64,000 nucleotides of DNA from an uncultured delta proteobacterium (GTDB lineage: Bacteria > Desulfobacterota > Binatia > UBA9968): NCBI GenBank assembly GCA_963760795.1, contig CAVXEP010000022.1:64001-128000 (forward strand), read 5' to 3'. A program made the position numbers and the translations under genes. Shown one piece after another: positions 3,972 through 21,263 of this stretch. The notes under the pieces were generated by a model that had not been told where the DNA came from, did no database searches, and saw only the letters and a program-made list of their open reading frames with translations. How positions within the stretch are numbered: the stretch's first letter is position 1; every line of letters begins with the position of its first letter.

Positions 3972-4721
3972 TTAAACCGTCGCAAGCGAATTCATTTTAA
4001 GATGGAGCAGAAATTCTTTGTTGCCCTTGGGTCCCAAGAGCGGCGATTCGGTGACGGCCAGGACCCGATAGCCGCAGTCGACCGCTGCTAGAGATATTTC
4101 ATCGATGACCCGGTTGTGCTCTTCCGCCGAGCGCACCACGCCGCCTTTGCCGACTTTGCCCTTGCCCACTTCGAACTGTGGCTTGATCAGCGCCACGACA
4201 GTCCCTTCTGAGGCAATAAGCGAATGTACTTTCGGCAGGATCAATTTGAGCGAAATAAACGAGGCATCGATGGTCGCGAGTGCCGGGATGAACGGCAGAC
4301 GAGCCGGCTCCAGATACCGGATGTTGGTTTTTTCGAGAACCACGACGCGCGGGTCGTTGCGCAGTTTCCAATCGAGTTGGCCATAACCGACATCCACCGC
4401 GATGACCTTGGCGGCGCCATGAACGAGCAGACAATCGGTGAAGCCGCCGGTGGAAGCACCGATGTCGATGGCACTTTTGCCGGCGACCTCAATGGCAAAC
4501 TCGCGCAACGCCTTCTCCAGTTTGACGCCGCCGCGGCTGACATAGGGAGGCGCGGCTTTAACCGTGATCGGCGCCGCGCGGTCGATCAAGTTACCCGCTT
4601 TAGTGACCGGTTGCCGATTGACTAGAACCTCGCCGGCGAGAATGCGCCGCCGCCCCTCTTCCCGGCTCGCCACCAGTTGGCGCTCGACCAAGAGCAAGTC
4701 TAAGCGCTGCCTCTTTCCCAT
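3972..4721 (-). CDS. tlyA: TlyA family rRNA methyltransferase
   Basis: S4 domain RLDLLLV, YVSRGGVKL, DIGASTGGFTDCLL, LIKPQFE, GPKGNKEF. Confidence 0.95.
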   Translation of the reverse strand: MGKRQRLDLLLVERQLVASREEGRRRILAGEVLVNRQPVTKAGNLIDRAAPITVKAAPPYVSRGGVKLEKALREFAIEVAGKSAIDIGASTGGFTDCLLVHGAAKVIAVDVGYGQLDWKLRNDPRVVVLEKTNIRYLEPARLPFIPALATIDASFISLKLILPKVHSLIASEGTVVALIKPQFEVGKGKVGKGGVVRSAEEHNRVIDEISLAAVDCGYRVLAVTESPLLGPKGNKEFLLHLKMNSLATV

Positions 4722-6616
4722 CCCTCTCTAATTTTCTTCTTGGCACGGCGCATCATCTGCAAGGCCGCCTGAGCGATGGCATCTTTGTCGAAGCCACAGA
4801 TTTTCTTGAGCTCCTCCTGGGTGCCATGGGGAATGAATCGATCCGGCACACCGAGCCGTTTGACATCCACACCGGTAATGCCGTCGTCCGCGAGAAATTC
4901 CACCAGCGCGCTGCCGAAACCGCCGCTGATCGCATGATCTTCGACAGTGATAAGCCGCGGCACTTTGGTCAGTAGATCGCGAAACAGGTTTTCATCCAGC
5001 GGTTTGACGAAGCGTGCATTGACCACCGCCGCGTTGATACCCAGGGGGGCCAAATCTTGCGCGGCTCTAAGCGCCGGAATCGCCGTGTTGCCGATGGCGG
5101 CGATGACCAGATCGGTGCCGCCGCGCAGTAGTTCCGCTTTGCCGATCTTCACACTGTGCATCTGTTCGTCGAGCGCGACATCCCAACCTTCACCGCGCGG
5201 ATAACGCAATGAAATCGGCCCCGAATGCTCGATGGCAGTCTTGAGCATATGCTGCAACTCGTTTTCATCCTTGGGCGCCATGATGACCATGTTGGGGATC
5301 GAACGCAGATAAGCAAAATCGAAAACCCCGTGGTGTGTCGGCCCGTCAGCGCCGACCAAACCGCCGCGGTCAAGCGCCAACACCACATGAAGATTCTGCA
5401 CGCAAACATCGTGGAGAATCTCGTCGTAGCCGCGCTGTAGAAAAGTCGAATAGATCGCCACCACCGGGACATAACCCTCGGTCGCCATGCCGGCGGCGAA
5501 CGTGACCGCATGCTGTTCGGCGATGCCGACATCGTAGGTGCGCTCCGGCAACTCGCGCTGCAACTTATCGATGCCGGTACCGCTGCCCATTGCCGCGGTG
5601 ATGCCGACTATCTTGGGATTTTCCTTGGCCAGGCGAACCAGCGCTTTGCCGAAAACCTCTGTGTAGCTCGGCACCGGACTCTTGTCTTTTTTAGCTTTCC
5701 CGGTCAATACGTGAAATGGCGTAACGCCGTGAAACTTGATCGGGTCCTGCTCCGCCAGTGCGAAGCCTTTGCCCTTTTTGGTCAGGACATGAACCAAGGT
5801 CGGTCCCTCGACCTTTTTGATATTTTCCAAAGTCGCGATCATCGCGCCGATATCATGACCATCGATGGGACCGACATACTGAAAACCCAAGCTCTCGAAG
5901 AGAAATCCCGGCGTGACCAAGCTCAAAAATGAATCGCGAATCTTGCGCGCCGCGTATTTGATTTGCTCGCCGCTGGGCAAACTCTTAAGCAAACTTGAAA
6001 GATTTTTTTGCAGCCGTAGACCCAGATCGGTGGTAAACTGCCGGCTCAAGAACGACGACACCGCGCCCACCCGCGGATCGATAAAGTGCTCGTTGTCGTT
6101 GAGAACAACGATCAAGTCCCGGTCCAGATGACCGGCCGAGTTGAGTCCTTCGTAGGTCAATCCCGCACTCAAACCGCCATCGCTGATCACCGCGACGACT
6201 TTACGTTTGCCGCCGGCCAGCGCGTTGGCCTCGACCATACCGAGCGCCGCGGAGATCGATGTGCCGGCATGACCGGCGCCAAAGGTGTCGTATTCGCTTT
6301 CTTCGCGCGAGAGAAAGCCGCTCAGACCGCCCAACTGGCGGATCGTCGCCAAGCGATCGCGCCGGCCGCAGATGAGTTTATGGGCGTAGGTTTGGTGGCC
6401 GGTGTCCCAAACGATGCGGTCTTCCGGCGTATTGAAAACGTAATGCAGCGCCAGTGTCAGCTCCACCGCGCCCAAAGTTGAAGCGAAGTGGCCGCCCACT
6501 TCCGACACCACCGAGATCACTTCTTCGCGGATCTCCTGGGCCAACCGTGGCAACTCGTCGATCCTGAGTTTGCGCATGTCGCGCGGATATTCGATACCGT
6601 CAAGCAATCGCGCCAT
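4700..6616 (-). CDS. dxs: 1-deoxy-D-xylulose-5-phosphate synthase
   Basis: GGHFASTLGAVELT, WDTGHQTYAHK, DVGIAEQHAVT, DRGGLVGADGPTHHG. Confidence 0.97.
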   Translation of the reverse strand: MARLLDGIEYPRDMRKLRIDELPRLAQEIREEVISVVSEVGGHFASTLGAVELTLALHYVFNTPEDRIVWDTGHQTYAHKLICGRRDRLATIRQLGGLSGFLSREESEYDTFGAGHAGTSISAALGMVEANALAGGKRKVVAVISDGGLSAGLTYEGLNSAGHLDRDLIVVLNDNEHFIDPRVGAVSSFLSRQFTTDLGLRLQKNLSSLLKSLPSGEQIKYAARKIRDSFLSLVTPGFLFESLGFQYVGPIDGHDIGAMIATLENIKKVEGPTLVHVLTKKGKGFALAEQDPIKFHGVTPFHVLTGKAKKDKSPVPSYTEVFGKALVRLAKENPKIVGITAAMGSGTGIDKLQRELPERTYDVGIAEQHAVTFAAGMATEGYVPVVAIYSTFLQRGYDEILHDVCVQNLHVVLALDRGGLVGADGPTHHGVFDFAYLRSIPNMVIMAPKDENELQHMLKTAIEHSGPISLRYPRGEGWDVALDEQMHSVKIGKAELLRGGTDLVIAAIGNTAIPALRAAQDLAPLGINAAVVNARFVKPLDENLFRDLLTKVPRLITVEDHAISGGFGSALVEFLADDGITGVDVKRLGVPDRFIPHGTQEELKKICGFDKDAIAQAALQMMRRAKKKIREGWERGSA

Positions 6617-6617
6617 A

Positions 6618-7595
6618 TTAGGATTGTATCTCCTTGGTTAGAACTTCGCCATTCATTTTCAACGCCCGAGCGACCACCTGCCGGGTAATCGCGCGCAACG
6701 GCTCGGCGCCGGCGCCGAAGGGCGCCAACTCGCGCAAACAATGCCGGCGTAACTCCTTGAGCCGTTGCTGCGCCGCGGCAATGCCGATCACCGACGGAAA
6801 TGTCGCTTTGTTCCACTCGCTGTGTCCTGATTCGGCACGCTCGCCAGGCGCGGTCTCGCCCAAGATATCGAGGATGTCATCGGCGATTTGAAAAGCCAAG
6901 CCGAGATACTCGCCGAAGCGCGCGATGCGCTTTAGCTCCGCCGGCTTGGCGCCGGCCACCTGCGCGCCCAAGCGCAGCGAAGCGCGGATCAACGCGCCGG
7001 TTTTGCGCACATGAATATATTCGACCACGCCGATGTCGACTTCGCGCCGCTCGGCCTCCAGATCGAACGCCTGACCGCCGACTAAGCCGGCGATGCCGAC
7101 GGCGTGCGAAAGTTCATGGACCAACTTGAGGACCAACTCGGCGGGTAGACACTTTAACACCCCGGGCGCCGACAGCACATGAAAGGCTTCGGTGAGCAGC
7201 CCGTCGCCGGCGAGCAGCGCGATGCCATCGCCAAAAACTTTGTGGTTGGTCGGTTCGCCGCGGCGTAGATCGTCGTTATCGAGGGCCGGCAGGTCGTCAT
7301 GAATCAGCGAATAGCCATGAATCATCTCGACAGCACAGGCAAACGGCAGGAGCGCCTTGCGCCGCCCCGCGAAGATCTCGCCGGCGGCCAGCACCAAGAT
7401 CGGCCGGATGCGCTTACCGCCGGGGAAAAGTCCGTAATGCATCGCTTTCCAAATGGTGCCGGATTGCTCCGCGTAGCGCTTCAAGTAACTTTCGAGAGCA
7501 CGGTCCACCGCCGCGGTGCGGGAACGCAGATAGGACTCCAGATCGAAGTTCGCGGCGCTGTGGTTTGCCTTTACGGCCAGGCCAGTTTCACTCAT
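6618..7595 (-). CDS. ispA: Farnesyl/polyprenyl diphosphate synthase
   Basis: GGKRIRP, HGYSLIHDDLPALDNDDLRRG (FARM), KTGALI, FQIADDILD; directly upstream of dxs. Confidence 0.92.
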   Translation of the reverse strand: MSETGLAVKANHSAANFDLESYLRSRTAAVDRALESYLKRYAEQSGTIWKAMHYGLFPGGKRIRPILVLAAGEIFAGRRKALLPFACAVEMIHGYSLIHDDLPALDNDDLRRGEPTNHKVFGDGIALLAGDGLLTEAFHVLSAPGVLKCLPAELVLKLVHELSHAVGIAGLVGGQAFDLEAERREVDIGVVEYIHVRKTGALIRASLRLGAQVAGAKPAELKRIARFGEYLGLAFQIADDILDILGETAPGERAESGHSEWNKATFPSVIGIAAAQQRLKELRRHCLRELAPFGAGAEPLRAITRQVVARALKMNGEVLTKEIQS

Positions 7596-7691
7596 TGAGA
7601 AAATCGCTTGAATCACCCAGACTGGGAGCAATTTAGCATCCACCGGCGCAAGTCTTCAAATCAAGCTGTGCAGTATTTGCCAAAATTGCGC

Positions 7692-8516
7692 CTAAAGTTT
7701 TTGCAGGTGAGCATTTTTTGCCGAATATCCGACTCGATCGTTGGCAGGCAAAGATACCCCGCAGGCGAACAAGCCGAGTAACAAGCCGCCAACTCCGGCG
7801 CCCACCGCGATCCAGTACTGATTGAGGATGCAAAATCCCAGGGGCAGTGCGAAGTTGACTCCATAGACCCACATGGCGAAATGCATCGAAGTCTTCGGTC
7901 GCGCCACCAGCTGGTTGAGAACGATAAACAGCACCAATCCAGTAACGCCCCAACCGAAAAGATTCATCCACGGCATACCATAGTAGCTCCCCGCTTCACC
8001 CCAGACCCAATAACTGGTTACCTTGCTCATCGCCGGGTCAAGCAGCAGATCCCAGGAAACCAACAAGACCGTAGCGAGCATGATCGCTATGACACCCGAA
8101 CGGTGCTGGCAGGCCATTGTCCAGCAAGCCCAACTCATGGTGAACCAACTGAGTGGAATCAACAGCGGCACGAGCTCGAACCACTTGGGACCGAGCAGGC
8201 TTGTATAGGAGTAAGGCCCGAACGGCACGCCCCAGCCGGTGCCCATGAGCTCGCTCGCCAAACTAACCGCATAGACGACGGCAAACGCGAATAACGCCGC
8301 GAGGCGATTTCTGAGCAAGGCGTCGGCTACCACGGCAAGACCGCCGAAAAGCATATTGCCGACGGCGAAACCGTGAAACGCCCAGGTAAAGAAACGCGCT
8401 TGGGGATCGACCTGCATCAAGAGATCGGGACGCGAAGTAAAAATACCATAACCCAACAAGCTCGCGACCACGATCAGCGCCTGTAAAACTAAAAAGCCCC
8501 ATGCTACGAAGTGCAT
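7692..8516 (-). CDS. cruF: Carotenoid 1',2'-hydratase-like membrane protein (CruF / carotenoid biosynthesis protein family)
   Basis: E..G..PFGPYSYT..LGPK..VPLLIPLSW, WDLLLDPAM, YYGMPWMNLFGW; RBS GGAGGAG before ATG 8516; located in crt operon. Confidence 0.8.
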   Translation of the reverse strand: MHFVAWGFLVLQALIVVASLLGYGIFTSRPDLLMQVDPQARFFTWAFHGFAVGNMLFGGLAVVADALLRNRLAALFAFAVVYAVSLASELMGTGWGVPFGPYSYTSLLGPKWFELVPLLIPLSWFTMSWACWTMACQHRSGVIAIMLATVLLVSWDLLLDPAMSKVTSYWVWGEAGSYYGMPWMNLFGWGVTGLVLFIVLNQLVARPKTSMHFAMWVYGVNFALPLGFCILNQYWIAVGAGVGGLLLGLFACGVSLPANDRVGYSAKNAHLQKL

Positions 8517-8547
8517 CGTCGCTCCTCCATTTGAATTTGAACACTCA

Positions 8548-8715
8548 TCAATCACAAGCAGCGGGCCGCAGACACACCGCGCTAACCAACGAATCGAGGA
8601 TCCGCTGCCGCCGGCTCAATAGCGCGATCGCCAACGATAGCACCCTCGGTCGGTACACTAAGCCACGATTTTGAGAATTGAGATCCATTATCTCTTTTTC
8701 GTAACTTCGCTTCAC
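8548..8715 (-). pseudogene. Probable remnant (N-terminus only) of a methyltransferase gene
   Basis: GTG overlaps the ketosynthase stop (GTGA); MKRSYEKEIMDL resembles the RS..E.MD N-terminus of PKS-associated methyltransferases, then similarity is lost. Confidence 0.35.
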
Positions 8716-9992
8716 ACCATCGCTCCACGCTCGATGACTAAGGCGGAGTTCTTCGAACCGAAACCAATGCAATTACAGAGCGCGATATCGGTGGCTTTGG
8801 CGATGCTCTGATTGGGAATGTAATTGAGATCGCACTCCGGATCGGACTCGTCCAGATTGATCGTCGGCGGCAAAAAGCCGCCATTCATACCACAGATCGC
8901 GGCGATGACGCCCGCCGCGCCCGATGCCCCTTGAGGATGGCCGATCATCGACTTGACCGAACTCATCGGCAGCTCACGCGCCCGTTTGCCGAAGCATAAC
9001 TTGGTCGCGCGGGTCTCAGTTTTATCATTCAGAACTGTTGCGGTGCCGTGCAGCGCAATGTAACCGACTTCGTCTTTGGCCAGCCGCGCATCTTCGATCG
9101 CCAGGCTCATCGCCCGGGCGGGCTCCTCGCCGCTCGGCTCGAGACGGACACGGTGATAAGCGTCGCATGTCGAGGCATAACCGCGCACCTCGGCATAGAT
9201 CGTTGCACCGCGGATCAACGCCAACTCGCGCTCTTCGAGAATCAAAATCCACGCGCCCTCGCCGAGGACAAAGCCGTCCCGGCTCCGGTCGAACGGCCGC
9301 GACGCCCGTGCCGGCTCATCGTTGTGCGATGTCGACACCGCTTGCATGACGCAGAACCCCTGCATGATCGCCGGCGTAATCGTCGCGTCGGCGCCGCCGG
9401 TGACAAAATGATCGGCCAAGCCGAAACGAATTTGATTGAAGGCGTAGCCGAGAGCGTCGGTGGAGCTGGTGCAGCCGGTGGAAATCACATGGCTCGGTCC
9501 ATGAAAACCGAAATGGATCGATAGTTCGCTCGAAAGCGAGCCGAGGGTCGAACTCGAAACGTTGTAGGCGCTGATTTTACGCAACTGATCGCGGTAATAG
9601 AGGCGATACTGTTCCTCGACGAAATCGGCTGTGCCGCCGCCGCTGCCAAGGATCACGCCCCAGGACTGTTTTTCCTCCAAGCTCATGCCTGCCGGAGAAA
9701 CTCGGGCGCGGCGCAGCGCTTCCTGCGCGGCGGCGACCGCCAGATGCACCGCGCGACCGGTGCGTTTGATATCTTTGGCGGACAGGAAACTCTCCGCCTC
9801 AACGTTCCGAACCTCACCGGCGACGCGGCAAGAAAGCGCGCCAGCATCGAAGCAGGAGATCGTATCGATACCGCTGCTACCTCGCCGCAGAGACTCTTGA
9901 TAGGCATCGGCGCCAATACCGTTCGGGCTCACGACACCGACCCCGGTGACGACAACCCGCCGGCGTTTTGAATCAACTTCGTATCGGCTCAT
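8712..9992 (-). CDS. Beta-ketoacyl synthase (FabF / type II PKS KS-alpha-like)
   Basis: RRVVVTGVGVVSPNG, STGCTSSTDALG (Cys), RPFDRSRDGFVLGEG, HGTAT (His), KSMIGHPQGA (His). Confidence 0.9.
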   Translation of the reverse strand: MSRYEVDSKRRRVVVTGVGVVSPNGIGADAYQESLRRGSSGIDTISCFDAGALSCRVAGEVRNVEAESFLSAKDIKRTGRAVHLAVAAAQEALRRARVSPAGMSLEEKQSWGVILGSGGGTADFVEEQYRLYYRDQLRKISAYNVSSSTLGSLSSELSIHFGFHGPSHVISTGCTSSTDALGYAFNQIRFGLADHFVTGGADATITPAIMQGFCVMQAVSTSHNDEPARASRPFDRSRDGFVLGEGAWILILEERELALIRGATIYAEVRGYASTCDAYHRVRLEPSGEEPARAMSLAIEDARLAKDEVGYIALHGTATVLNDKTETRATKLCFGKRARELPMSSVKSMIGHPQGASGAAGVIAAICGMNGGFLPPTINLDESDPECDLNYIPNQSIAKATDIALCNCIGFGSKNSALVIERGAMV

Positions 9993-10043
9993 TGAATTCG
10001 GCCACATCCGTTCGCTTGCCGGCATTTCGTATCAAGCTCGATC

Positions 10044-10997
10044 TCATTGAACATTGGAATATTTCCAGATGGTTCTCAATGCACCAGGCGACCAGGGCTT
10101 AAACAAACGAGCCGGCATTGAGCGCACGAGACTTAAGACGCCACGCAGCACCACCCAAATTTTACGCGCGCCGGTGACATAAGTCCGTTGATCCCAAGCT
10201 CGCGCACCGCGTTTGACCAACAGGGAACCGATCTCGGAATAAACATGACGCGCCGCCGACACGGCGCAGGCTGAACGAAACGACAAATGCCACAAGCCGG
10301 CATCGCCCGATCGATAGTAGCGATCCGCTTCGTTGAGCAGCCGCAGCGTCAACATCGCCAACTTGTCACGATTCTCCGGCGCGCTGATTTGATCAGGAGG
10401 AATTTTTGCTTCATCGAGCCAGGCCAGCGGCAGATAGATGCGCCCCATCCCGGCATCCTCAGTGATGTCGCGGGCGATATTGGTGAGCTGCATGGCGATA
10501 CCAAGATCGGCGGCGTTGCGCAGCGCGCTTTCGTCGCGCAACCCCATCACATGGGACATCATTAAACCAACAGTACCGGCAACCCGGTAACAGTAGAGCA
10601 CGAGCTCGCGCAAAGTCCGGTATCGAGTCCCGCGCACATCCATCGCCATGCCTTCGATCAATTCGAGCGCGTAGTGCGCCGGTATGCCGTAGCGGTGCAC
10701 GATATGTTGCAGGGCGATAAACACCGGTTCTTGCTGCGGCGCAAAGGAGAAAGCCGAAGCGGTTTTCTCTTTTAGTGCTTTAAGCCTGGCTTCCAACTCG
10801 ACCCGATCATCCGCTTCGCCGGCATCATCGACTTGATCGTCGCAGTAGCGGCACCAGCCATAAAGAAACACCGCCGCGTCGCGCGTCTGAGCATCGAAGA
10901 GCTTTGCAGCCAGGGAGAAGCTCTTCGAGCCCTTGGTGATAATTTCGCGGCAATCATTGAGCGCCGCGCGCACTTCAGGGGTTAGCGCATCAGGCAT
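10044..10997 (-). CDS. crtB: Phytoene synthase
   Basis: GSKSFSLAA, LYGWCRYCDDQVD, YCYRVAGTVG, LGIAMQLTNIARDI.ED..GRIYLP. Confidence 0.95.
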   Translation of the reverse strand: MPDALTPEVRAALNDCREIITKGSKSFSLAAKLFDAQTRDAAVFLYGWCRYCDDQVDDAGEADDRVELEARLKALKEKTASAFSFAPQQEPVFIALQHIVHRYGIPAHYALELIEGMAMDVRGTRYRTLRELVLYCYRVAGTVGLMMSHVMGLRDESALRNAADLGIAMQLTNIARDITEDAGMGRIYLPLAWLDEAKIPPDQISAPENRDKLAMLTLRLLNEADRYYRSGDAGLWHLSFRSACAVSAARHVYSEIGSLLVKRGARAWDQRTYVTGARKIWVVLRGVLSLVRSMPARLFKPWSPGALRTIWKYSNVQ

Positions 10998-12522
10998 AGG
11001 ACACTTCCGCCGTTTTGACAGCCGAACTTGCCAAAACAGATTTCATATCTTCAAGAATCAAATTGGCGGTCGCCTTGCCGGAATTGACCACGCCCGGTAT
11101 ACCCGCCCCCGGATGCGTGCCGGCGCCGACGAAATAGAGCCCGCGAATATGCCGATCGCGATTGTGCACGCGAAAATAAGCGCTCTGCATCAGGCGCGGC
11201 TCCAAGGAAAATGCCGAGCCAAGATGGGCGTTGAGCTCACTCTTAAAATCGGCCGGGGTAAAAATTCGCTGCGTGACAATCGACGCGGCGAGACCGGGCA
11301 TGTAGCGCTGCTCCAAATACTTTAAAATCTTTGCCGCGTAACCTGGCCCCTCAACTTTCCAGTCGATCGCGAGCTTACCCAGATGCGGCACCGGCGAGAG
11401 CACGTAGAAGGCTTCGCAGCCTGGCGGCGCCAGCGTCGGATCGGAACGCGTCGGCGCGTGCAGATAAAGCGAAAAATCGTCGGCCAGTCTGCCACGTTCA
11501 AAAATATCGCCCAAGAGTTCGCGGTAGCGCGGTCCGAAGATGACGTTATGGTGCTGCAAATTGGGATAGGCCCGATTGGTGCCGAAGTAAATGAGAAATA
11601 GCGACATGCTGTATTTTTTATGGCCAAGCTTTCGTGCCATCGGGGCGGCACGCGGTTCGCCTTTGAGCAGCCGATCGTAGGTGTGGACGACATCGGCGTT
11701 ACTCACCACCAGATCGAAACTTTCTTCCCGCCCCGCGTTGGTTTGCAAACCCGTCACCGCGCCGTCACGGGTAACGATCCTTTCGATCTCAGCCTCGAAA
11801 CGAATCTCACCACCGAGTTCTCGGAAAAGTCTTACCAACGCCCAAACCAGCTGGCCCGTGCCGCCCTTGGGGAAAAACACTCCCCACTTGCGTTCGAGGC
11901 AATGAATCAGCGTATAAATCGACGTGGTCGTAAACGGGTTGCCGCCGACCAAGAGCGAATGAAAACTAAACAGCTGGCGCAGATGCGGATCGCGAATATG
12001 TTTGGCGACCATGCTGTAGACCGAGCGGTAAGCTTCAAGCCGAATCAACTGCGGTGCCACCGCCGCCATGCTCGAGAGATTTAAGAACGGCACATGAACC
12101 AGCTTTTCGTAACCTTCATGAAAGACTTCTTGCGAGTATTTTAAGAATTTTTGATAGCCCGCCCAATCGGCCGGCGATTTGGCGCGAATTTGCCGCTCCA
12201 GCGCGGCATCGTCGTCCGAGTAATCGAAGACGTATCCATCGTCCCAGAACAAACGGTAAAACGGGGTGACCGGCATCAGCTCGACGTAATCTTGCAGCGA
12301 TTTGCCGGCGACCGCGAAAAGCTCTTCTAGACAATGCGGTGCGGTAATGACCGTTGGGCCGGCATCGAAGGTAAATCCGTTGTCACGATAAACGTAGGCA
12401 CGACCGCCGGGCTGATCGCGCTTTTCAAAAATAATAGTGTCGCAGCCAGCCGCTTGCAGACGAATGGCGGCGGCGAGGCCGCCGAAACCGCTACCGATGA
12501 CTGCGACGCGCGGCTTATCCAT
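10990..12522 (-). CDS. crtI: Phytoene desaturase
   Basis: VIGSGFGGLA, FDAGPTVIT, FHSLLVGGNPF, QSAYFRVHN, GAGTHPGAGIPGV. Confidence 0.96.
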   Translation of the reverse strand: MDKPRVAVIGSGFGGLAAAIRLQAAGCDTIIFEKRDQPGGRAYVYRDNGFTFDAGPTVITAPHCLEELFAVAGKSLQDYVELMPVTPFYRLFWDDGYVFDYSDDDAALERQIRAKSPADWAGYQKFLKYSQEVFHEGYEKLVHVPFLNLSSMAAVAPQLIRLEAYRSVYSMVAKHIRDPHLRQLFSFHSLLVGGNPFTTTSIYTLIHCLERKWGVFFPKGGTGQLVWALVRLFRELGGEIRFEAEIERIVTRDGAVTGLQTNAGREESFDLVVSNADVVHTYDRLLKGEPRAAPMARKLGHKKYSMSLFLIYFGTNRAYPNLQHHNVIFGPRYRELLGDIFERGRLADDFSLYLHAPTRSDPTLAPPGCEAFYVLSPVPHLGKLAIDWKVEGPGYAAKILKYLEQRYMPGLAASIVTQRIFTPADFKSELNAHLGSAFSLEPRLMQSAYFRVHNRDRHIRGLYFVGAGTHPGAGIPGVVNSGKATANLILEDMKSVLASSAVKTAEVSYA

Positions 12523-13522
12523 AAGCGACTGCAATTTCCTCGCCCAACTGGCGCAGTTCGTTGAAGGCTCGCGATGACCAAGCTATATCCGACTCGCACA
12601 AGCGCTGTTTCAACCTAGCGAAGGCACGATCCAGATGCAGGCGCGCGCTTGCGCGGGTCATTGGAATCAGATCATGAGAGGCGATCCAGCTTTCCAACGA
12701 CTTGGCGTTGGGTAACTCGGCGACAGCATGGAGAAACGTTTCATACTCATAAGCGTCGGTTGAATTTGCCGCGCAAGCCCACACCCAAGAGGGGCGCGAC
12801 AGCGATAGGTCTTCAAAACGCTTTTGCGGATCGCATTTGCCGATGACATTTCCCAGGTCATCGTACATTTGTAATGCGATGCCAAGATCGACGCCAAAGG
12901 CATCGAGCGATTCAATCACGCGCTGGGGCTTGCCTGCCACGGTTCCGCCCAGCGCCGCCGCGAACCCCATCAAAGCGCCGGTCTTGAGAGTCATCCCGGC
13001 CAGGCACACTTCCGCCACCGATGTCTGCGGCAACTGCGGCACCTTGGCGCCTAGATCGAGACCTTGGCCGAAATGCGCGCGCAACAGCGTTCGGTTATAT
13101 CGCTCATACAGGCACGCCATTTGTTCAGCCGCGAGGCCGGCGTCTTTGAGCAGCTCGAATGGCCAGAAGTAAAGCCAGTTTCCAGCGTTGAGCGCCAAGG
13201 GAACTCCGTATTGCACATGCAATGCCGGCCGCCCACGGCGCATCTCGCTGCCATCCTCGATGTCATCGACGATTAACGAGCCGGCGTGCATCAGTTCGAC
13301 GACCTCTGCGCAGTCGCGGCACTGCTTTGCCGCGGCAAACGACACCGCGCGCTCATCGTGGAACAGTCGATAAGTCATCGCGACGAGTTGCGCCCGGATA
13401 CGCTTGCCCGGATTGGCCGTAAGCGCTGCCACAGGGTCGAGCAACGCTTGCCGCAGGGCACTTTCCACCGCGGCGCTATGATCGATGCCGAGAAGCTCCG
13501 CCAAACGGCCATCGGCAAACAT
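12515..13522 (-). CDS. crtE: Geranylgeranyl diphosphate synthase (CrtE-like); true start may be 13640 with a frameshift
   Basis: PGKRIR, HAGSLIVDDIEDGS.MRRG, GQGLDL, LKTGALM, QMYDDL; coupled to crtI; RBS-led out-of-frame ATG at 13640. Confidence 0.8.
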   Translation of the reverse strand: MFADGRLAELLGIDHSAAVESALRQALLDPVAALTANPGKRIRAQLVAMTYRLFHDERAVSFAAAKQCRDCAEVVELMHAGSLIVDDIEDGSEMRRGRPALHVQYGVPLALNAGNWLYFWPFELLKDAGLAAEQMACLYERYNRTLLRAHFGQGLDLGAKVPQLPQTSVAEVCLAGMTLKTGALMGFAAALGGTVAGKPQRVIESLDAFGVDLGIALQMYDDLGNVIGKCDPQKRFEDLSLSRPSWVWACAANSTDAYEYETFLHAVAELPNAKSLESWIASHDLIPMTRASARLHLDRAFARLKQRLCESDIAWSSRAFNELRQLGEEIAVAYG

Positions 13523-13664
13523 TACCGCTTCAGCGCCGGCGCCACTGGGTAGCCGGCTTGGCTTGTCATCTGATGCCGGCGCGATAGCGCCGCTTCGCCA
13601 GCGTCGTGCCGCTGTACATCGTCAATCCTTGATGTTTCATCCTATCTCTCCCCTATGAGCACAA

Positions 13665-14582
13665 TCACCCTTCCGCTGACAACAATGTCTCCGGCGGCAC
13701 TTCCAAAGCGTTGGCCATGCGCACCATAATATCCAGGGAAACGTTTTGCTTGGCGCCTTCGACGGCGATGATGCAGGCGCGCGCCACCTGAGTCACCTCG
13801 GCCAGGTGCTCTTGAGTCCATCCCCGTTTTGTCCGCAAATCGCGCACGCGGCGCGCCAGCACCATTTGATATTCTTTGAGCACTGACTTGGGCCGATCGG
13901 CGCGCAACAGCCGGCCGATGGAACTTACACCGACCATGATATCTTCAGCAATTTCACAACGCCGGCCAAGATTTTTCACGCTGGGATTGTCTACTACCGC
14001 CTGTCCGGCAATAACCACCCGGACCTCAGGCGCCGACTTTTCTAAGTCACCAATTACCAGACGAGCATTTTCAACCCCCTGCGTCATCGTCACGGATAGC
14101 CCAATCACCTGCGGGTGACGTCGATGCACCATCTCAACCAGCGCTTGGTTGGGCACATTGGCGCCGAGAAAGTCGACGTGCCAGCCCCGTGCCCCGCATA
14201 GGTCAGCCAGCATGCGAGCGCCGATGTAATGCTGCTCTCCTTCGATGCAGGCAACCATTACGCGATAGAGTGAGCGCCTAGCGGGAGGCGCGAAGTGCGC
14301 GCGCAGGCGGTCCATCTGGCCGATCACGATCTCCGTCGCCAGCTTCTGTTCGCCGACCCCGATATCACCGCGGCACCATGACTCGCCGACACCTTCGAGA
14401 GCCGGGGTGACTACTTTGAGATAAATATCGCCAAGCGTCTGCTGCGATGAGATAAGTTCGTCAGTGACCTGCCCGGCGATCTCGTGATCGCCGTTGACAA
14501 TGGCGTGGGCCAAGCGCTTTTGCTTTGCGTCGAAATATTCGGCGCTGGCATCGGCAGCAAATTTTTCCAAGGTAGCGGCCAT
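13665..14582 (-). CDS. Cobalamin-binding transcriptional regulator (B12 cap + B12 Rossmann domain, C-terminal XRE HTH)
   Basis: IYLKVVTPALEGVGESW (cap), GEQHYIG and GLSVT (B12 motif), RVRDLRTKRGWTQEHLAE..NVSLDIMVRMANALEV (HTH_3). Confidence 0.85.
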   Translation of the reverse strand: MAATLEKFAADASAEYFDAKQKRLAHAIVNGDHEIAGQVTDELISSQQTLGDIYLKVVTPALEGVGESWCRGDIGVGEQKLATEIVIGQMDRLRAHFAPPARRSLYRVMVACIEGEQHYIGARMLADLCGARGWHVDFLGANVPNQALVEMVHRRHPQVIGLSVTMTQGVENARLVIGDLEKSAPEVRVVIAGQAVVDNPSVKNLGRRCEIAEDIMVGVSSIGRLLRADRPKSVLKEYQMVLARRVRDLRTKRGWTQEHLAEVTQVARACIIAVEGAKQNVSLDIMVRMANALEVPPETLLSAEG

Positions 14583-14631
14583 ATTCAAAGCCTAAATAAA
14601 ACTAATCGAGATTCGACAATGGACCAACTTG

Positions 14632-15539
14632 CTAAAGCCCCAACGACTCCAGGGCCAGCTTAAGATTCGGATATTTGAATTTGAAACCGAGCTTGATCGC
14701 CGCCTCGGGAATCGCCCGCTGGCCGTTCAGCAACATCTCCGCCATCTCACCCACCATCAGCGCCAGTACAAATGGCGGCACCCTTGCCCACGACGGCCGG
14801 TTCAATACGCCACCCAGAGTCTTGGAAAACTCTGCCATGGTCACCGGATTGGGCGCCGTGCCATTAAATGCGCCGCGCGCGCTCTCGTTCTCGACCAGGA
14901 ACTGAATCAATCCGACCTCATCTTCGATATGAATCCACGGCATCCACTGCCGGCCCGAACCGAGCGGCCCGCCAGTAAACATTTTGAACGGCGGCACCAT
15001 CTTTTTTAACGCACCCTCGCCTTTGGCCAAGACGATGCCCGTGCGCAGCAAGCAAACCCGCACACCAAGCGATTCCGCCTTCTTCGCTTGCCGATTCCCA
15101 ATCGACGCACAGGCGCGCGAGAAAATCGTCGCCGGGTTTGCTGTCTTCGTTCAACGGTTCGTCGCCGTGGGGACCGTAGTAGCCCACTGCCGATGCACTG
15201 ATCATTAATTTCGGTTTGACCTGGGCCTTAGCGATGGCATCAACCAACGCTTTCGTCCCATCGACACGGCTCGAGCGCAGAATTTCCTTTTGCTTGGGAG
15301 TCCATCGCTTACCGGCGATCGGCTCCCCTGCAAGATTGATCACCGCATCGGCACCGTCGATGGCACGCTCCCAGTCGCCGCTGGCACCCGGCTGCCACGC
15401 CAACCACTGTTTTTTCGCTACGCTAATTTCCGCCGGTGGTCTGCGGCTAAGCAAGACTAACGCAGTGATGACTCTTCGACAACCGCTCGGTCAATAGCGA
15501 TCCGATCATGCCCGTGGCGCCGGTAAGTACGATTTTCAT
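14632..15539 (-). CDS. TIGR01777 family NAD-dependent epimerase (frameshifted)
   Basis: MKIVLTGATGMIG, AVINLAGEPI..RWT, SASAVGYYG, LRTGIVL, GPLGSGRQWMPWIHIED spread over several frames. Confidence 0.88.
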
Positions 15540-15595
15540 CTTGTGTTAATACCGCTCTCAGAATGGCTAAGAACTTCCATCAATGTACGATATAG

Positions 15596-15630
15596 TTGAC
15601 GTTTCTATCTAAAATGTTATCAATAGTCAA
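15596..15630. promoter_or_regulatory. Overlapping divergent sigma70-like promoters
   Basis: Minus: TTGACT-N17-TAGAAA. Plus: TTGACG-N16-TATCAA with TG extension, ending 8 nt before ATG 15632. Confidence 0.55.
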
Positions 15631-15631
15631 C

Positions 15632-16601
15632 ATGGACGCGAAAAAATTTTCAAATACTAATCCGAAAGTAGGAATCAGCGCCTGCCTGCTCGGACAGCAG
15701 GTACGCTTCGACGGCGGGCACAAACGCGATCTCTTTCTCACCGATCTTTTCGGCAAATTCGTCGACTGGGTAGCCATCTGTCCCGAAGTCGAAGTCGGCA
15801 TGGGCGTGCCGCGCGAGACGGTGCGGTTAGTCGGAACACCGACCGATCCGCGAATGATCGCAGAGAAATCTGGTAAAGACTGGACTGAAGCGATGCATCG
15901 CTTCGCCGCGAAACGCGTACGGGACATCGCTGAACAAACAGTTGTCGGGCTATGTATTCAAGAAAAACTCACCCAGCTGCGGCATGGAGCGGATCAAAGT
16001 CTATAACGCAAAAGGCATGGCGGAGCGGCAAGGCCGCGGCCTTTTCGCTGCGGCGCTGATGAACCAGTGGCCGCTCTTGCCGGTCGAAGAAGAGGGCCGG
16101 CTGAACGATTTAAAGCTTAGAGAAAATTTCATCGAGAGAGTCTTCGCCTACCATCGCTGGCTGCAAGCAACGTCGGAGCGAAGATCACCCGGGGCGCTGG
16201 TGCGCTTTCACACGAGTCACAAATATTTATTGCTGGCGCACAGCGAGCGTCACTATCGCCAACTCGGTCGCCTGGTGGCGGCAGCGAAACAAATATCTAT
16301 TGCCGCGGTTTACGACGACTACGGCCGGGTTTTTATGGACGCGTTAGCGGTTCACGCTACTGAGAAGTCTCATGCCAATGTCCTGGATCACATGATGGGC
16401 TACTTCTCCAAGCAGTTGACCGCCGCCGAGCGACAAGAACTGGTGCAATTAATCGGCGAATTCCGCCACCGGCTCATTCCGTTGATCGCGCCGATCACAA
16501 TGATCCGCCACTACACTAGAAAATACCAAGTTGCATACTTGCAAGGACAGCTTTATCTGGAACCCAATCCTAAGGAGCTGATGCTGCGAAACCATGTCTA
16601 A
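15632..16601 (+). CDS. DUF523 + DUF1722 (YbgA-like) protein (frameshift near 15940)
   Basis: GISACLLGQQVRFDGGHK, ICPEVEVGMGVPRE, KKNSPSCG, EEEGRLND..LRENFIERVF, ELMLRNHV. Confidence 0.9.
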
Positions 16602-16637
16602 GCGACAGGGTTTGCTCGACGGGTAACAATAACTATC

Positions 16638-17117
16638 ATGAAGACCTACTGGCTTAGAAAAACAATTTGGCTGCCGCAACCACGCGCCAAAGTGTTCGAG
16701 TTCTTTTCCAACCCCGGCAATCTCGATCGCCTCACGCCGGCATGGCTCAACTTCGCGATTCTGACACCGGCGTCGAGCAAAATGAAACAGGGATCGTTGT
16801 TAGACTATCGGCTACGCATTCGCGGCATACCGATTCGCTGGCAGAGCGAGATCGCCGTCTGGGAACCGCCGCACCGTTTCGTCGACCGGCAAACCAAAGG
16901 TCCCTACTCCCTCTGGGTCCACGAACACATCTTCGAAGAGCATGACAATGGCACACTGGTTGGCGACAACGTCGAATATGCCGTCCCCGGCGGACGCATC
17001 GTGCAGAAGTTTCTGGTCGCTCCCGATATTGAGCGAATCTTTGACTATCGCCACAAAATATTGGAAGAACTGTTCAATCCGGCGAAGCTCACGCGGTCAC
17101 AGCGATCCGGCGCTTAA
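16638..17117 (+). CDS. SRPBCC family protein
   Basis: [40 protein letters not shown]. Confidence 0.85.
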
Positions 17118-18515
17118 GGATTCGACAGCGCGCCTTTTTCTAACGCCGCCACGCGCGCGATATAAGCTTTACTGTTGAACTTGCGCGATGTACTGGCAAA
17201 GGACATATAACGGATTTTTCCGTAAATTGGCCGCTCCGGGCCCCAGGCCCGGTCATGCTTGCCGACGATCGCCCAGGCGATCCCGGCGTAACCGTTGGGA
17301 TCGCGGCCATCAGTTCGTAGCGATCGTTCAGCCGAACGGCGATCTCGAACGCATCGGCCGGCGCGGGGCTCCATTCAAGAATTTTCTTGGCCCAATACAT
17401 GCGCAGGTAGCCGTGCATCCAACCGGTCAGCACCATTTGTTTTTGCGCAGCGTTCCACAGCGGATCGTGGGTTTCGGCGTTCTCAAGCTGTCTTTCCGAA
17501 TAAATATACGGGCGCGAGTCGCGCGCATGAAGGCGCAGACTGCGATCCGCCCAAGGCGCACTGGCCTCGAAGCTGTCGTAGCTTGGATTGTAGCGGACAA
17601 AATTTATCGCCAACTCACGGCGCACGATGAGCTCCTCGAGAAACGCCTTCTTGGCGAGATCCGGTGCGCTGGCGTGTGTTGCCGCCAGCGCAACCTGCTG
17701 GACGCTGATATGGCCGAAATGAAGATACGGCGACAGCTGGCTAGTGCCGTCAATGTCCGGCTGATTGCGCTGCGTGTCATAGGCGGCAAGCCGGGTGGCG
17801 AGAAACCGGTCAAGCGGCGCTCGCGCCGCCCGCGCACCGCCAACAAATCTCGCTACCGGGAGCACCGAACGGTCGATGGGAAAATTTTCCAACAGCGAGT
17901 CATCCACGTCGACAGTTTGCAGCCCGGCGGGACAGTCGCCATTCAACGTGGGCGCTCGGATTAGTCGGAGGTATCAGAAAACCGGACAACAGGTCCCGAA
18001 TCTTCGGACGGATCGTGCGTGCCGCGTAATGCTCTTTACCGAGCAATCGGCTTGGCACGACGACATCGGCGTCCACGGTCCAGAACGGCACTCGAAGGTC
18101 GCAGCGATGCGCGCTCCTTAGCGCGTTCCGCCTCGCGCAACGGGTTCTCATCGCCGATGACCAGACAGGGGCTAACCTGCGCACAAAATCGCGCCAGGCC
18201 GTGATCCGGATATCGGCGCAAAACAAATCCAACTCGGCGTTTCCGCAGCTCGGTCGAGAGATCGACAAGCCCTTGGCGCATGAACTCATAGTGGCGAAGA
18301 TTCGCACGACCAGATCGAGGGAAAAGCTGAAAGAAGACAACGACCGGTTTGCTAAGCAGGTTGGCCGCTTCGATAGCGACGTTCAGAGCCGGATTGTCGC
18401 GCGCTCGTTGCGCTCGCTGCATCCAGTAAATGACGCAACTTCCATTATGATCCGGCGCGCCGGCTTTGCGCCGGGTTACGCGCGCATCGAACTCCAACGA
18501 TTCAAGATTATTCAT
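17114..18515 (-). CDS. phr: Class II CPD DNA photolyase (frameshifted)
   Basis: [81 protein letters not shown]. Confidence 0.92.
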
Positions 18516-18619
18516 TGGCTATATGTTCTATATTAGACTGAGATCTTCAATCGAAGATTAGCGTATGTCCAAATCATTTGCTAAAAACAATCGACTGCCC
18601 ACCTAAATGAGGCAAATCT

Positions 18620-19396
18620 ATGAACGGTTCTTCATGGAGACGTCGGAGATGCACCAGGTTTACGCTCATTGCAATGATCATGATGGCAATGCCGTTCGGT
18701 CGATTGCTATTGGCCCAGGAAGAAAACCCATTAGCTCCGGGCACCTACCGCCTGGAAATGATCATGGCGTCGACAACCCGGGTGCCGGTCTTCGGCACCT
18801 CGAAGTCGGCATCGAAGTCAGTCTCCCTAGTTGAGATCAAACGTGATGGCGCGGGGCTGATCCAAACCCACAAGACCTGCGAATTTCGTGTGCTCGAAGA
18901 CTCCAAGTTCATCAAAATGATCTTTCCCGAGAAGTTTGTCGCGGCACTGGCACGACACACTTATCCGCTGCAATTCGACAAAGACGCGCAAGGCTGGCGC
19001 TATCGCGCCGATCTTGGCATTGAACGGATCGGCTACAAATCGAACGGCAACGAAACAGCCCTGCCCGCCAAGATCGACGACCCGGCGGTTTACGACTGGG
19101 ACGGCGATGGCAAGCCGGCCGCCACACTCAAGATTTCCATCCCGCTATTACCCGACGGAGAGTTTTATGTCGTGCAACGCGGCCATTCGATCCTCAACGG
19201 CCGGATCGCCCAACCGGGAAAAATCGAGGGCGCCATCGAAACCCGCTTGTTCGAACAGCGCGTGCTCGGCGCGTGGCCAGGCTTTTTGAATCAATCGGCA
19301 GAGGTCGAACCTGATCCCAAAGAGAGCCGCTTCGTTCTGAGCCAGATCGCTGCCGGTAGCACCTGTGAAACTTTGCTATCCGCCGGCAAATCTTGA
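18620..19396 (+). CDS. Hypothetical secreted protein
   Basis: N-terminal basic plus hydrophobic signal; DWDGDGKP motif; first gene of the operon with the GT and acyltransferase. Confidence 0.7.
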   Translation: MNGSSWRRRRCTRFTLIAMIMMAMPFGRLLLAQEENPLAPGTYRLEMIMASTTRVPVFGTSKSASKSVSLVEIKRDGAGLIQTHKTCEFRVLEDSKFIKMIFPEKFVAALARHTYPLQFDKDAQGWRYRADLGIERIGYKSNGNETALPAKIDDPAVYDWDGDGKPAATLKISIPLLPDGEFYVVQRGHSILNGRIAQPGKIEGAIETRLFEQRVLGAWPGFLNQSAEVEPDPKESRFVLSQIAAGSTCETLLSAGKS

Positions 19397-19430
19397 GACG
19401 ACCGTCGCCAACCGGAAAGAATAGGACTCC

Positions 19431-20534
19431 TTGTTCGGACTATCGAAAACCAAACTGCGCATCGAGGTTTCCACGGCTTCTTCCGAGGAGCGTGTCACAG
19501 TGCTCTTGCCGGTACTGAACGAGGCCGCCCGGATCGACGCTTGTCTCACCGCATTGTGCCGACAACCGGAAGAGGTACAGGAAATTTTGGTCATCGACGG
19601 CGGCTCCATCGACGGCACTCAGGGTATCGTCCAGCGCCATCATAACGTGGATGAACGCGTAAAATTGATCGATGCCAGTCCGGTGGACCCGAGCTGGACG
19701 GGAAAAGCCTGGGGACTGCACCGGGGTTTGCAGAGTTCGTCAGCTGGCAGCGATTGGATACTTTGCGTCGACGCGGATGTCACGGTCCAACCGCAGCTGG
19801 TGCGCTCGCTGCTGCACCACGCTCAAAGAAGCGGCGTCCAGATTTTTTCAGTGGCGACCGGACAACAATTGTCGGGCAATCTCGAAGCACTGATTCATCC
19901 GGCAATGTTGACCACCTTGATCTACCGCTTCGGTTCGCCCGGCAGAGCGACCAGTAATCGCCATCGCGTTCAAGCCAACGGCCAATGTTTTTTTGCCCCT
20001 CGTCAGATCTTGCTGCGCACGGAGGCATTTCGCGCCGCGCAAGCCTCGCTGTGCGAAGACATCACCATCGTGCGCCGCCTCGCCGAATGCGGCGAACAGA
20101 TTGGCTTTTATGAATCCAATGGATTGGTCGACGTGAAGATGTATAACAGCTGGCGCGAGACCTGGAACAATTGGCCCCGTTCTCTGCCCATGCGGGATCA
20201 GTACTTCGGCTGGCGCGAGGCGGTGGCATTGTTCGGCGTGCTGATCGTCCAGGCCTTGCCTTTACCGGCGGTGATCCTTGCCGCGCTATTTCAATTACCG
20301 TTGCTGATCTTAGTAGTTGCCGGATTCTTCTTGATGATCCGATTGGGCGTCCTCTTCGGCGTTGCCCGTGCCTACCCCGATCGGCCCTGGGCCTTTTGGT
20401 TTTCACCGCTCGCCGATTTGCCGGTGGTTTTGCGCATCATTCAATTCGCTCTGCGGCGCCGTCATAGTTGGCGCGGCCGGACCTACCGCCGCGGCAAGGG
20501 CGGAATCTTCGAACCGATTGGCGACATCAAGTAA
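19431..20534 (+). CDS. GT2 glycosyltransferase, CruG-like (carotenoid glycosyltransferase)
   Basis: VLLPVLNEA, VIDGGSIDGT, WTGKAW, CVDADV, QANGQC, EDI, C-terminal TM helices and WRGR. Confidence 0.8.
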   Translation: MFGLSKTKLRIEVSTASSEERVTVLLPVLNEAARIDACLTALCRQPEEVQEILVIDGGSIDGTQGIVQRHHNVDERVKLIDASPVDPSWTGKAWGLHRGLQSSSAGSDWILCVDADVTVQPQLVRSLLHHAQRSGVQIFSVATGQQLSGNLEALIHPAMLTTLIYRFGSPGRATSNRHRVQANGQCFFAPRQILLRTEAFRAAQASLCEDITIVRRLAECGEQIGFYESNGLVDVKMYNSWRETWNNWPRSLPMRDQYFGWREAVALFGVLIVQALPLPAVILAALFQLPLLILVVAGFFLMIRLGVLFGVARAYPDRPWAFWFSPLADLPVVLRIIQFALRRRHSWRGRTYRRGKGGIFEPIGDIK

Positions 20535-20550
20535 GCAAGCCAGACATCCT

Positions 20551-21263
20551 GTGAACCGAATCGCCGACTTTGCCGTCGATCGAGCGATGCGCATGTCATC
20601 GCTCGCATCCTCACCGGCAATCGCTTGAAAACGGTTGCTCAAGGACTGGAACACTTGCCGCCGCAGGGTCCGGCGATCATCGCCGCGCGCCATTACCACC
20701 ACCTGTTTGACGGCCTGGCTTTTTTTGCCGCCGTCGAGAGGCGCTTTCATATCGTCGTGACGCTCGATTGGGCGCAAAACCGACGTACCAAATTCTTCAT
20801 GAGCAGCCTCAACACCCTCGCCCGTTGGCCGATGGTGTTACGCGAACAGGCGATCGAAAATTCCCCCCGAGAGAGCCGCCTTTACACTGCCAACGATACG
20901 CGCCGCTACCAGCTGGCCGCACTACGCCAGTCCGTCAAGCTACTCAAGGAAAATCGTCTGTTAATTATTTTCCCCGAAGGATTTCCATACGTCGATCCGG
21001 TGTTTACTCCCAAGACTCGCGCCGACGAATTCCTGCCTTTCAAACCAGGATTCGCGGCCATCGCCGAAAGCGCCGAGCGAATGATGCATCGAGCGATCCC
21101 GATCATCCCGACGGGAATTCGATACCAAATCGGATCGACCTGGCTGGCCCATCTCAGCTTCGGCCCACCCGTCTATCGGCGCGACTTCCCCTCGCGGCAG
21201 TGTTTTATCGACTCGGTTTCAGATACCGTAAAACGGCTTTCCGGCTTGCAAGCAGGGAGCTGA
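20551..21263 (+). CDS. PlsC-like acyltransferase (5' frameshift; main ORF from 20625)
   Basis: GLEHLP..GPAIIAARHYHHLFDG (Hx4D), IIFPEG, PFKPGF, PIIPTGI. Confidence 0.8.

Follow-up and report, generated by a model that had tools for sequence, protein, structure and literature searches.

The stretch of DNA analyzed here (the window) comprises 64,000 nucleotides from an uncultured delta proteobacterium of the Binatia (assembly GCA_963760795.1, contig CAVXEP010000022.1, positions 64,001 to 128,000). The gene in question, at 13665..14582 on its minus strand, encodes a 305-aa protein in which a cobalamin module is followed by a C-terminal helix-turn-helix (HTH) domain of the XRE type, as judged from the open reading frame (ORF), its translation, Pfam, and the homologues, and which is referred to below as the regulator. 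The ORF is intact and begins with ATG; a start at the in-frame TTG two codons further upstream (14588) would instead give 307 aa. The Pfam coordinates follow the 307-aa form and the motif positions the 305-aa form.

The N-terminal part of the module is a four-helix cap (B12-binding_2 at 24-95, 4.3e-11, 43.3 bits against a cut-off of 23; ~residues 22-93, 14304..14519, minus strand), which carries G66-E-S-W69, C70, and Q79-K80 and is modeled by AlphaFold2 (AF2) with a predicted local distance difference test (pLDDT) value of ~90. It is followed by a Rossmann B12-binding domain (109-199, 3.4e-19, 69.3 bits against a cut-off of 32.1; ~residues 107-197, 13992..14264, minus strand), whose fold matches that of CtMerR and TtCarH and whose motifs comprise E116-Q-H118-Y-I-G121, G140xxxP144, S163-V-T165, and A192-G193. 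The protein fits the spacing of the classic B12 motif, D/ExHx2G-x41-SxT/V-x22-27-GG, as given in the available part of PMC9304148, the last element being AG here and GG in most homologues. After a conserved linker (P231, L235, Y238) comes the HTH (~residues 242-299, 13686..13859, minus strand), where HTH_31 and HTH_3 match at 244-301 (4e-9 and 1.1e-8; 37.1 bits against a cut-off of 27 and 35.4 bits against 23, respectively), placing the domain in the XRE/Cro-C1 group; it also contains invariant columns and matches the profiles of the solved repressors C.AhdI (6.6e-11) and SinR (2.6e-4). No MerR family is among the Pfam matches. Moreover, only ~21 residues precede the cap, and the stop codon of the upstream SDR/DUF1731 gene, at 14632-14634, lies 49 nt before the ATG of the regulator, so that an N-terminal DNA-binding domain would not fit. 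The original prediction had read from the letters a cap and a Rossmann domain placed ahead of a C-terminal XRE HTH, about 50 bp of space that would not hold a MerR domain, the retention of ExHxxG and SxT with W-x9-QK in place of W-x9-EH and a Cys after the Trp, and a position just ahead of crtE-crtI-crtB; all of these observations are confirmed, and the interpretation built upon them is partly supported.

The fusion is shared by a large family. A word-indexed search returned 195 homologues at E<=1e-3, and both B12-binding and HTH_3 are present in 116 of the 120 homologues listed, the other four being fragments of 178-266 aa, which bears out the architecture that the original prediction had proposed to look for. 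An exhaustive search against representatives at 50% identity gave 10,368 matches at E<=1e-3 and 82 at E<=1e-30; among the best 150 representatives, 125 are 270-335 aa long, most are matched over nearly their whole length, and their C-terminal 70 residues almost all carry the conserved HTH sequence (by eye). The length and the motif of the regulator agree with independent assemblies (P0001 at 98% identity, P0002-P0009 at 91-92%), and W-x9-QK is found in all 15 nearest homologues. An assembly artefact, which the original prediction had named as a possible refutation, is ruled out by this recurrence in independent assemblies, as is a chance fusion. The homologues carry automatic names such as “MtbC1/XRE family regulator”, “MerR light-induced regulator”, and “cobalamin-dependent protein”, and NCBIfam has no model for a cobalamin-XRE family, its best match being that of CarH (NF052513) at 61 bits against a cut-off of 400.

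The regulator occurs at E<=1e-40 in 17 of the 30 other species genomes of the window's GTDB genus. At the same threshold it was not found in any of the six other genera of the family or of the 24 genomes of the order's other families, and in a phylum-wide sample two of 200 other genomes match, both over the cobalamin module only. The distribution of the family is thus patchy and not a lineage trait.

A scan of a genome collection, in which 402 relatives were confirmed by tblastn and the best 80 kept, yielded 29 loci (L001-L028, L033) with the gene order of the window, in metagenome-assembled genomes (MAGs) labeled as delta proteobacterium, Thermodesulfobacteriota, Syntrophobacter, Binatia, and others. 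In this shared order, a photolyase gene converges on a unit of DUF523/DUF1722 and SRPBCC genes, from which the series SDR(DUF1731), regulator, crtE, crtI, crtB, and, in some cases, a ketoacyl synthase gene diverges. The gene crtE directly follows that of the regulator in 27 of the 29 loci; in L003 the contig ends, and L033 holds a piece of crtB only.

In the window, the putative operon begins with the SDR/DUF1731 (epimerase-like) gene at 14632..15539 (minus strand; Pfam and tblastn), which is read in three frame pieces. Downstream of the regulator, and likewise on the minus strand, lies crtE (geranylgeranyl diphosphate synthase, 12515..13640), of which the ORF spans 12515-13522. The orthologues start at an ATG with a GGAG-type ribosome-binding site, which in the window lies at 13640, 24 nt past the stop codon of the regulator, with a shift of 1 base near 13585 separating this start from the ORF. 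The stretch ahead of crtE that had been taken as intergenic is, by these orthologue starts, mostly coding. Then follow crtI (10990-12534), crtB (10044-10997), and a beta-ketoacyl synthase gene (8712-10025), each assigned by Pfam and the conserved order, as well as Caroten_synth (PF04240, 7695-8615; Pfam). Given the 49-nt gap, the largely coding stretch between the regulator and crtE, and the lack of a convincing terminator, SDR-regulator-crtEIB look like one operon that would be read from the divergent promoter. When 8000-19000 was scanned for promoters and terminators, nothing resembling a promoter emerged, and sites resembling terminators stayed at the background level. A weak hint comes from two RNA libraries, contigs of which (88-96% alike) cover the regulator and bridge the SDR/regulator and regulator/crtE junctions.

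On the other side, on the plus strand, the divergent unit (15596..17117) consists of DUF523 (2-thiouracil desulfurase-like, from 15596), fused to DUF1722 across one frame shift (Pfam, tblastn), and of an SRPBCC gene (16638-17117; Pfam). The DNA photolyase gene (17132..18515, minus strand) is read in four frame pieces, with Pfam DNA_photolyase on the N-terminal piece and tblastn of an intact orthologue covering the whole.

More distant members keep related company. In the SAR202 Chloroflexota (~30% identity), the regulator gene is divergent to genes for fasciclin, GTP cyclohydrolase I (folE), SRPBCC, and photolyase, and the cultured Ca. Lucifugimonas marina (SAR202) has two regulator copies beside these genes. 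In a Deltaproteobacteria-labeled MAG (L038:2703-6552), the genes flanking the homologue are an amine oxidase-DUF1365 pair and DUF3833. Both sets, fasciclin/folE/SRPBCC/photolyase and amine oxidase/DUF1365/DUF3833, are light-regulon genes of CarH/LitR-type regulators elsewhere, and the link to photoprotection therefore spans the whole family.

The divergent SDR/DUF523 promoter region contains a candidate operator at 15584..15601, a degenerate 18-bp palindrome with the family consensus AGTCAAnTATAnTTGACT. It is present in 27 of the 27 related loci that reach this region, in addition to the window. Of the syntenic loci, 25 have the exact pattern once each, and the 59 other loci fetched all lack it; three syntenic sites are degenerate variants of the palindrome, and two loci stop short of the region. 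All 28 sites share an unchanged central TATA, the bases of the arms vary little or not at all, and the information content reaches 1.84 bits per position. When scored with a position weight matrix (PWM), the palindrome of the window is the best match of the whole genome, at 22.5 bits. Across 60 related genomes there are 15 such sites, all in the window's genus: 12 lie on the same contig as the regulator gene, ~0.1-2 kb from it, two on short contigs of fragmented genomes in which the regulator was not detected, and one elsewhere. In 30 genomes outside this genus the palindrome was not found. The small intergenic regions were also searched for inverted repeats of >=8 nt, and none was found. Read outward, each arm of the palindrome gives TTGAC, the two forming back-to-back -35-like boxes, and on the DUF523 side a 16-nt spacer leads to a TG-extended -10 element (read by eye). 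A dimer seated on the palindrome would cover the -35 boxes of both divergent promoters, and it is from the co-occurrence of site and gene that the regulator is proposed as the protein that binds it.

A further match (C2:5688-5705, L082:1500-1517; 22.3 bits) was considered as an additional regulon site and rejected. This match, probably due to chance, falls at the 3' end of a hypothetical ORF of 132 aa whose neighbors are not light-related, which leaves one clear site in the genome. The TTG at 15596 that opens the listed DUF523 ORF is itself the -35-like arm of the palindrome; by eye, the -10 element lies at ~15615-23 and an ATG at 15632, and the DUF523/DUF1722 mRNA may be nearly leaderless. 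In three SAR202 loci (L031:9791-9923, L034:9810-9941, L029:5240-5370), the intergenic region in which the regulator faces the fasciclin-folE-SRPBCC-photolyase operon carries, as seen by eye only, an inverted repeat TACACA-N11-TGTGTA and repeated TGTGTAAA words, a different candidate operator that would go with a diverged recognition helix.

The relationships of the sensor module were assessed with a sequence profile and an AF2 model, each built on 22 family members. The best-matched solved relatives in the profile search are the photocobilins (8J2X/8J2W, E ~2e-27) and the cobalamin domain of CtMerR (8JBS, 7e-27), followed by 4JGI (2e-20), the methylamine corrinoid protein 7XCN (2e-16), and TtCarH (1e-13). 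The model averages a pLDDT of 77 (sensor, ~90; HTH, 36-60) and superposes on 8JBS (CtMerR) with a TM-score of 0.83 and on the TtCarH domain (8C31) with 0.82, compared to 0.51-0.54 for 7XCN and 4JGI. In both sequence and fold, the module is thus nearest to the proven light-responsive modules of photocobilins, CtMerR, and TtCarH. The SignatureFinder study describes a signature of light-responsive cobalamin domains composed of GxxW, EH, GxxH, and GxxxP (PMC11796333, in the part available); three of the four elements are present here (G66xxW69, G115xxH118, and G140xxxP144), the EH being replaced by QK. A corrinoid protein of a methyltransferase system (MtbC/MttC/MtaC), the automatic JGI name of some homologues, is ruled out by family scores (TIGR02370, 55.6 bits against a cut-off of 215.3; MtbC, 41.7 against 350), by fold (TM-score of 0.51), and by gene context, in which no methyltransferase was seen among the conserved neighbor genes.

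A homodimer prediction scored 0.60, with the best of three controls at 0.00; among solved proteins, 20 of 30 same-chain pairs and one of 23 single chains reach this mark. Between runs, >=94% of contacts agree, and the partner pLDDT is >=83. In the predicted interface, cap residues 75-95, K80 and L81 among them, face residues 135-155 of the partner's Rossmann domain, a stretch that includes the GxxxP loop. The predicted arrangement is a head-to-tail dimer, as in CarH, CtMerR, and the photocobilins, although the passing score may reflect the likeness to solved dimers rather than independent evidence. As for the cofactor, adenosylcobalamin (AdoCbl) should be available, since the genome encodes an adenosyltransferase of the PduO type (1.4e-62) and contains three cobalamin riboswitches. 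No MerR-type CarH is evident in this genome (88.9% complete), the one other strong B12-binding match being a 645-aa frame.

The cap motif varies within the family. Among 119 close homologues, the pair corresponding to the EH of W-x9-EH reads EH in 51, EK in 42, and QK in 26, and the residue after the Trp is Cys in 116 and Arg in three. A FastTree phylogeny of 119 rows shows EH in the outgroup and in the basal clades, with repeated changes from His to Lys; rough counts from this quick tree, with its long outgroup branches, give at least 6-8 changes between EH and EK and at least 2-4 origins of QK within Lys lineages, with the window protein in a clade of 18 QK and two EK members. In the wider family, the motif could be read in 75 representatives, 69 of which have EH (the pattern was not matched in 50 further ones), and the residue after the Trp is most often His (25 of 75), with Cys in six of 75. 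W69, the lower-ligand motif, SxT, GxxxP, and (A/G)G are invariant or nearly so across the EH, EK, and QK members. The idea of a distinct cobalamin regulator, as put forward in the original prediction, thus stands as far as it concerns a conserved, crt-linked protein with the domain order reversed relative to CarH/LitR, but W-x9-QK is no trait of the family.

According to the accessible part of PMC11796333, the motif Glu hydrogen-bonds the adenosyl ribose and the motif His shifts on illumination, while the residue after the Trp is His in TtCarH, Arg in CtMerR, and Gln and Tyr in the photocobilins, only His giving the bis-His light state. With this in mind, QK appears to be a recent, recurrent, and conservative replacement in an otherwise canonical family with the same gene context, conservative because Gln can still hydrogen-bond and Lys falls at the predicted dimer interface. 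By itself QK would be no sign of a new ligand chemistry; the different upper-ligand chemistry that had been suggested is possible but not needed, since EH, EK, and QK coexist in the same gene order and EH is basal. The sensing of AdoCbl by a QK protein is nevertheless not assured, because W-x9-EH is reported in the part of PMC9304148 available to be crucial in CarH for binding that is specific to AdoCbl, for oligomerization, and for the binding of DNA. The near-invariant Cys is the most intriguing feature of the sequence, and it may supply cobalt with a sulfur ligand in the light state.

Taking these lines together, we infer that the protein is probably, though by no means surely, an AdoCbl- and light-dependent repressor of the carotenoid/photoprotection operon, acting through its C-terminal XRE domain on one palindrome. 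In the model proposed here, the N-terminal module would hold AdoCbl in the dark, with His118 as the lower ligand and the adenosyl group under the W69 cap, and the loaded protomers would pair head-to-tail. This pairing would set the two C-terminal XRE HTH domains on the single palindrome at 15584-15601, and the bound dimer would shut SDR-regulator-crtE-crtI-crtB, with the ketoacyl synthase and Caroten_synth genes possibly included, as well as DUF523/DUF1722-SRPBCC on the other side. Light would then cleave the Co–C bond, following which the oligomer would loosen and the carotenoid and photoprotection genes would be derepressed. Since the regulator gene sits inside the operon, autoregulation would follow.

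It has to be noted that several observations weigh against this model. In the sensor, the EH of W-x9-EH is missing (Q79-K80), and the published signature filter, which requires EH, would miss a QK protein. At the output end, the HTH is poorly modeled (pLDDT 36-60) and lies outside the confident dimer interface, and its geometry on DNA is therefore not derivable from the model. The palindrome of the window is degenerate, with three mismatches to the strict form, and its 22.5-bit score is barely above permuted-matrix controls, which reach up to 21.7, so that the case for the palindrome is made by its conserved position and not by its score. In the window's clade no convincing -10 element was found for the SDR-side promoter. 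The photolyase promoter region at 18516-18619, which had been put forward as a second target for electrophoretic mobility shift assays, does not contain the palindrome at up to three mismatches. Finally, contigs from RNA libraries can stem from DNA, and those found here come from relatives.

Four other explanations were weighed. The first retains light sensing and gives the crt-linked clade a photochemistry of its own, in which the near-invariant Cys70 next to Trp69 would stand in for His132 of Thermus CarH and, once photolysis has occurred, ligate cobalt by way of its sulfur, forming a thiolato-cobalamin light state, maybe redox-responsive, Lys80 would replace the His at the adenosyl pocket and the dimer interface, and a dimer would act on one palindrome. 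The Cys invites this view, and a new ligand chemistry is possible but not needed; we regard the view as improbable, if the best placed of the four. Were it true, repression would involve a dimer on a single palindrome instead of a tetramer on direct repeats.

The second explanation is that the QK clade has lost AdoCbl sensing and acts as a CarA-like, B12-independent repressor, a constitutive dimer that would receive light or stress signals via a separate factor such as an antirepressor. The replacement of EH by QK and the prediction of a dimer without any ligand are consistent with such a protein, and in the part of PMC9304148 available the myxobacterial transition from CarH to the B12-independent CarA is marked by W-x9-EH no longer being intact. 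However, CarA is described there as having lost the Trp and kept EH, and the window protein shows the reverse. In addition, little or no change is seen in W69, the lower-ligand motif, SxT, GxxxP, or (A/G)G, suggesting that a bound corrinoid is still selected for, the replacement is always Lys and has arisen repeatedly, which looks like a tolerated function and not like decay, and the conserved gene set contains no evident CarS-like partner. We give this explanation a slim chance.

A similarly slim chance is given to a cobalamin-dependent, light-independent sensor of B12 supply or redox state, using hydroxocobalamin or Cys70 in an AerR-like manner and tuning the isoprenoid/carotenoid genes. What speaks for it is the enrichment of Cys after the Trp (116 of 119 close homologues vs six of 75 wider-family representatives) and the match to AerR, which has another ligand chemistry, albeit a weak one in sequence (7TE2, 4.8e-4). 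The residue after the Trp, however, varies among the proven photoreceptors themselves (His, Arg, Gln, or Tyr; PMC11796333, available part), and photoactive domains resemble the module far more closely than AerR does. The neighbors, furthermore, constitute a light set, with photolyase, DUF523/DUF1722, SRPBCC, and carotenoid genes here and folE and photolyase in the Chloroflexota.

The least likely of the four, that the palindrome is simply two back-to-back -35 boxes and not an operator, the regulator acting elsewhere or as an activator, draws on the outward TTGAC arms, on the 16-nt spacer and TG-extended -10 element of the DUF523 side (by eye), and on a PWM score not far above the controls, yet it leaves unexplained the invariant central TATA of all 28 sites and the single copy of the site per genome, nearly always next to the regulator gene, and it sits poorly with an 18-bp two-fold symmetric site of the kind that suits a dimeric XRE protein, such proteins being expected to bind two-fold symmetric palindromic sites.

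The assembly of the window requires comment, as several genes of the cluster are broken. In comparison with intact orthologues (tblastn), SDR is in three pieces, DUF523/DUF1722 in two, and photolyase in four, and the N-terminus of crtE has one shift. The sites of single-base shifts are 13585, 15088, 15463, ~15940-15965 (DUF523/DUF1722), and, in photolyase, 17311, 17922, and 18105-18142. Exactly at three of these sites, 13585/13587, 15088/15092, and 15463/15464, one base is absent from short-read contigs (90-96% alike) of two independent DNA runs, and the frame shifts therefore most likely reflect single bases wrongly inserted in a long-read assembly and not pseudogenes. Elsewhere in the window, three overlapping frames of 224, 264, and 264 aa at 26195-28061 (minus strand) look like another frame-shifted gene.

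The surroundings of the cluster hold further genes of interest. At 4703-8615 (minus strand), Caroten_synth, a second polyprenyl synthase, and a 1-deoxy-D-xylulose-5-phosphate (DXP) synthase follow the pigment genes on the same strand, so that genes of precursor supply are in line with them. At 18620-21263 (plus strand), the cluster is adjoined by genes for a 258-aa protein without a Pfam family, a GT2 glycosyltransferase, and an acyltransferase, the first two of which recur beside the cluster in 18 of the 29 syntenic loci; these three proteins may modify the carotenoid, e.g., to a glycoside ester.

As far as can be told from its sequence and context, the regulator would be a well-supported member of a large overlooked family. 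If the proposed model holds, the cobalamin light module would be a portable input, able to drive a different DNA-binding domain from the opposite end of the protein and on a simple palindrome, and could give synthetic biology a compact green-light switch that is possibly a dimer. The natural series of EH, EK, and QK, with a Cys beside the Trp, offers a means of learning which cap residues AdoCbl photochemistry needs. From the model one would also expect light to induce pigmentation and photoprotection in uncultured bacteria of soil and sediment, and the SAR202 Chloroflexota, of which one member is in culture, to have a light regulon.

To our knowledge, all B12 photoreceptor-repressors studied so far use an N-terminal MerR-type domain. 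In the full-text literature searched, no cobalamin-domain regulator with an XRE domain was found described, although Figure 9 and Fig. S9 of PMC11796333 may show the architecture. The available part of this SignatureFinder study (FEBS J 2024) lists fusions of cobalamin domains, none of which is tested there, and EH-bearing members of the cobalamin-XRE family may be in its network. In P2TF (2012), two of 37 proteobacterial B12-domain regulators lack MerR, and their domain is unnamed.

In comparison with the known systems, the protein shares with CarH/LitR (TtCarH, 5C8D; M. xanthus CarH) the four-helix cap and Rossmann domain, the His lower ligand, and the location at carotenoid genes. It differs in having a C-terminal XRE domain in place of an N-terminal MerR winged helix, QK for EH, and Cys for His132. 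By the defining features of that family, it has the cobalamin module and the B12 motif, lacks the MerR domain and an intact W-x9-EH, and falls below the NF052513 cut-off. The operators of CarH are laid out as tandem direct repeats, as opposed to the one palindrome of the putative operator here, and M. xanthus carH lies inside the carB operon that it regulates, as the regulator of the window does in its own; a crtE-orf9 is mentioned in the part of PMC9304148 available.

CtMerR (Chloracidobacterium thermophilum, 8JBS/8JBT) and the photocobilins (8J2W/8J2X/8J2Y), which belong to the second group of light-responsive domains in the SignatureFinder study (PMC11796333, available part), are the best matches of the sensor and likewise have a residue other than His after the Trp. 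Both keep EH, unlike the window protein. CtMerR has an N-terminal MerR domain, and photocobilins have a C-terminal globin-like biliverdin-binding domain, the position of which is taken here by HTH_3. AerR/PpaA proteins are defined by a SCHIC-type module without a DNA-binding domain, whereas the window protein has its own HTH and matches AerR only weakly. M. xanthus CarA also has an incomplete W-x9-EH in a CarH-type module and represses carotenoid genes, but it is of the MerR type, and the XRE repressors C.AhdI (1Y7Y) and SinR (3QQ6) share HTH_3, lack a cobalamin module, and usually carry the HTH at the N-terminus. What is new here is the output domain, the domain order, and the putative type of operator; the cap variant is unusual, and the principle of the sensor is known.

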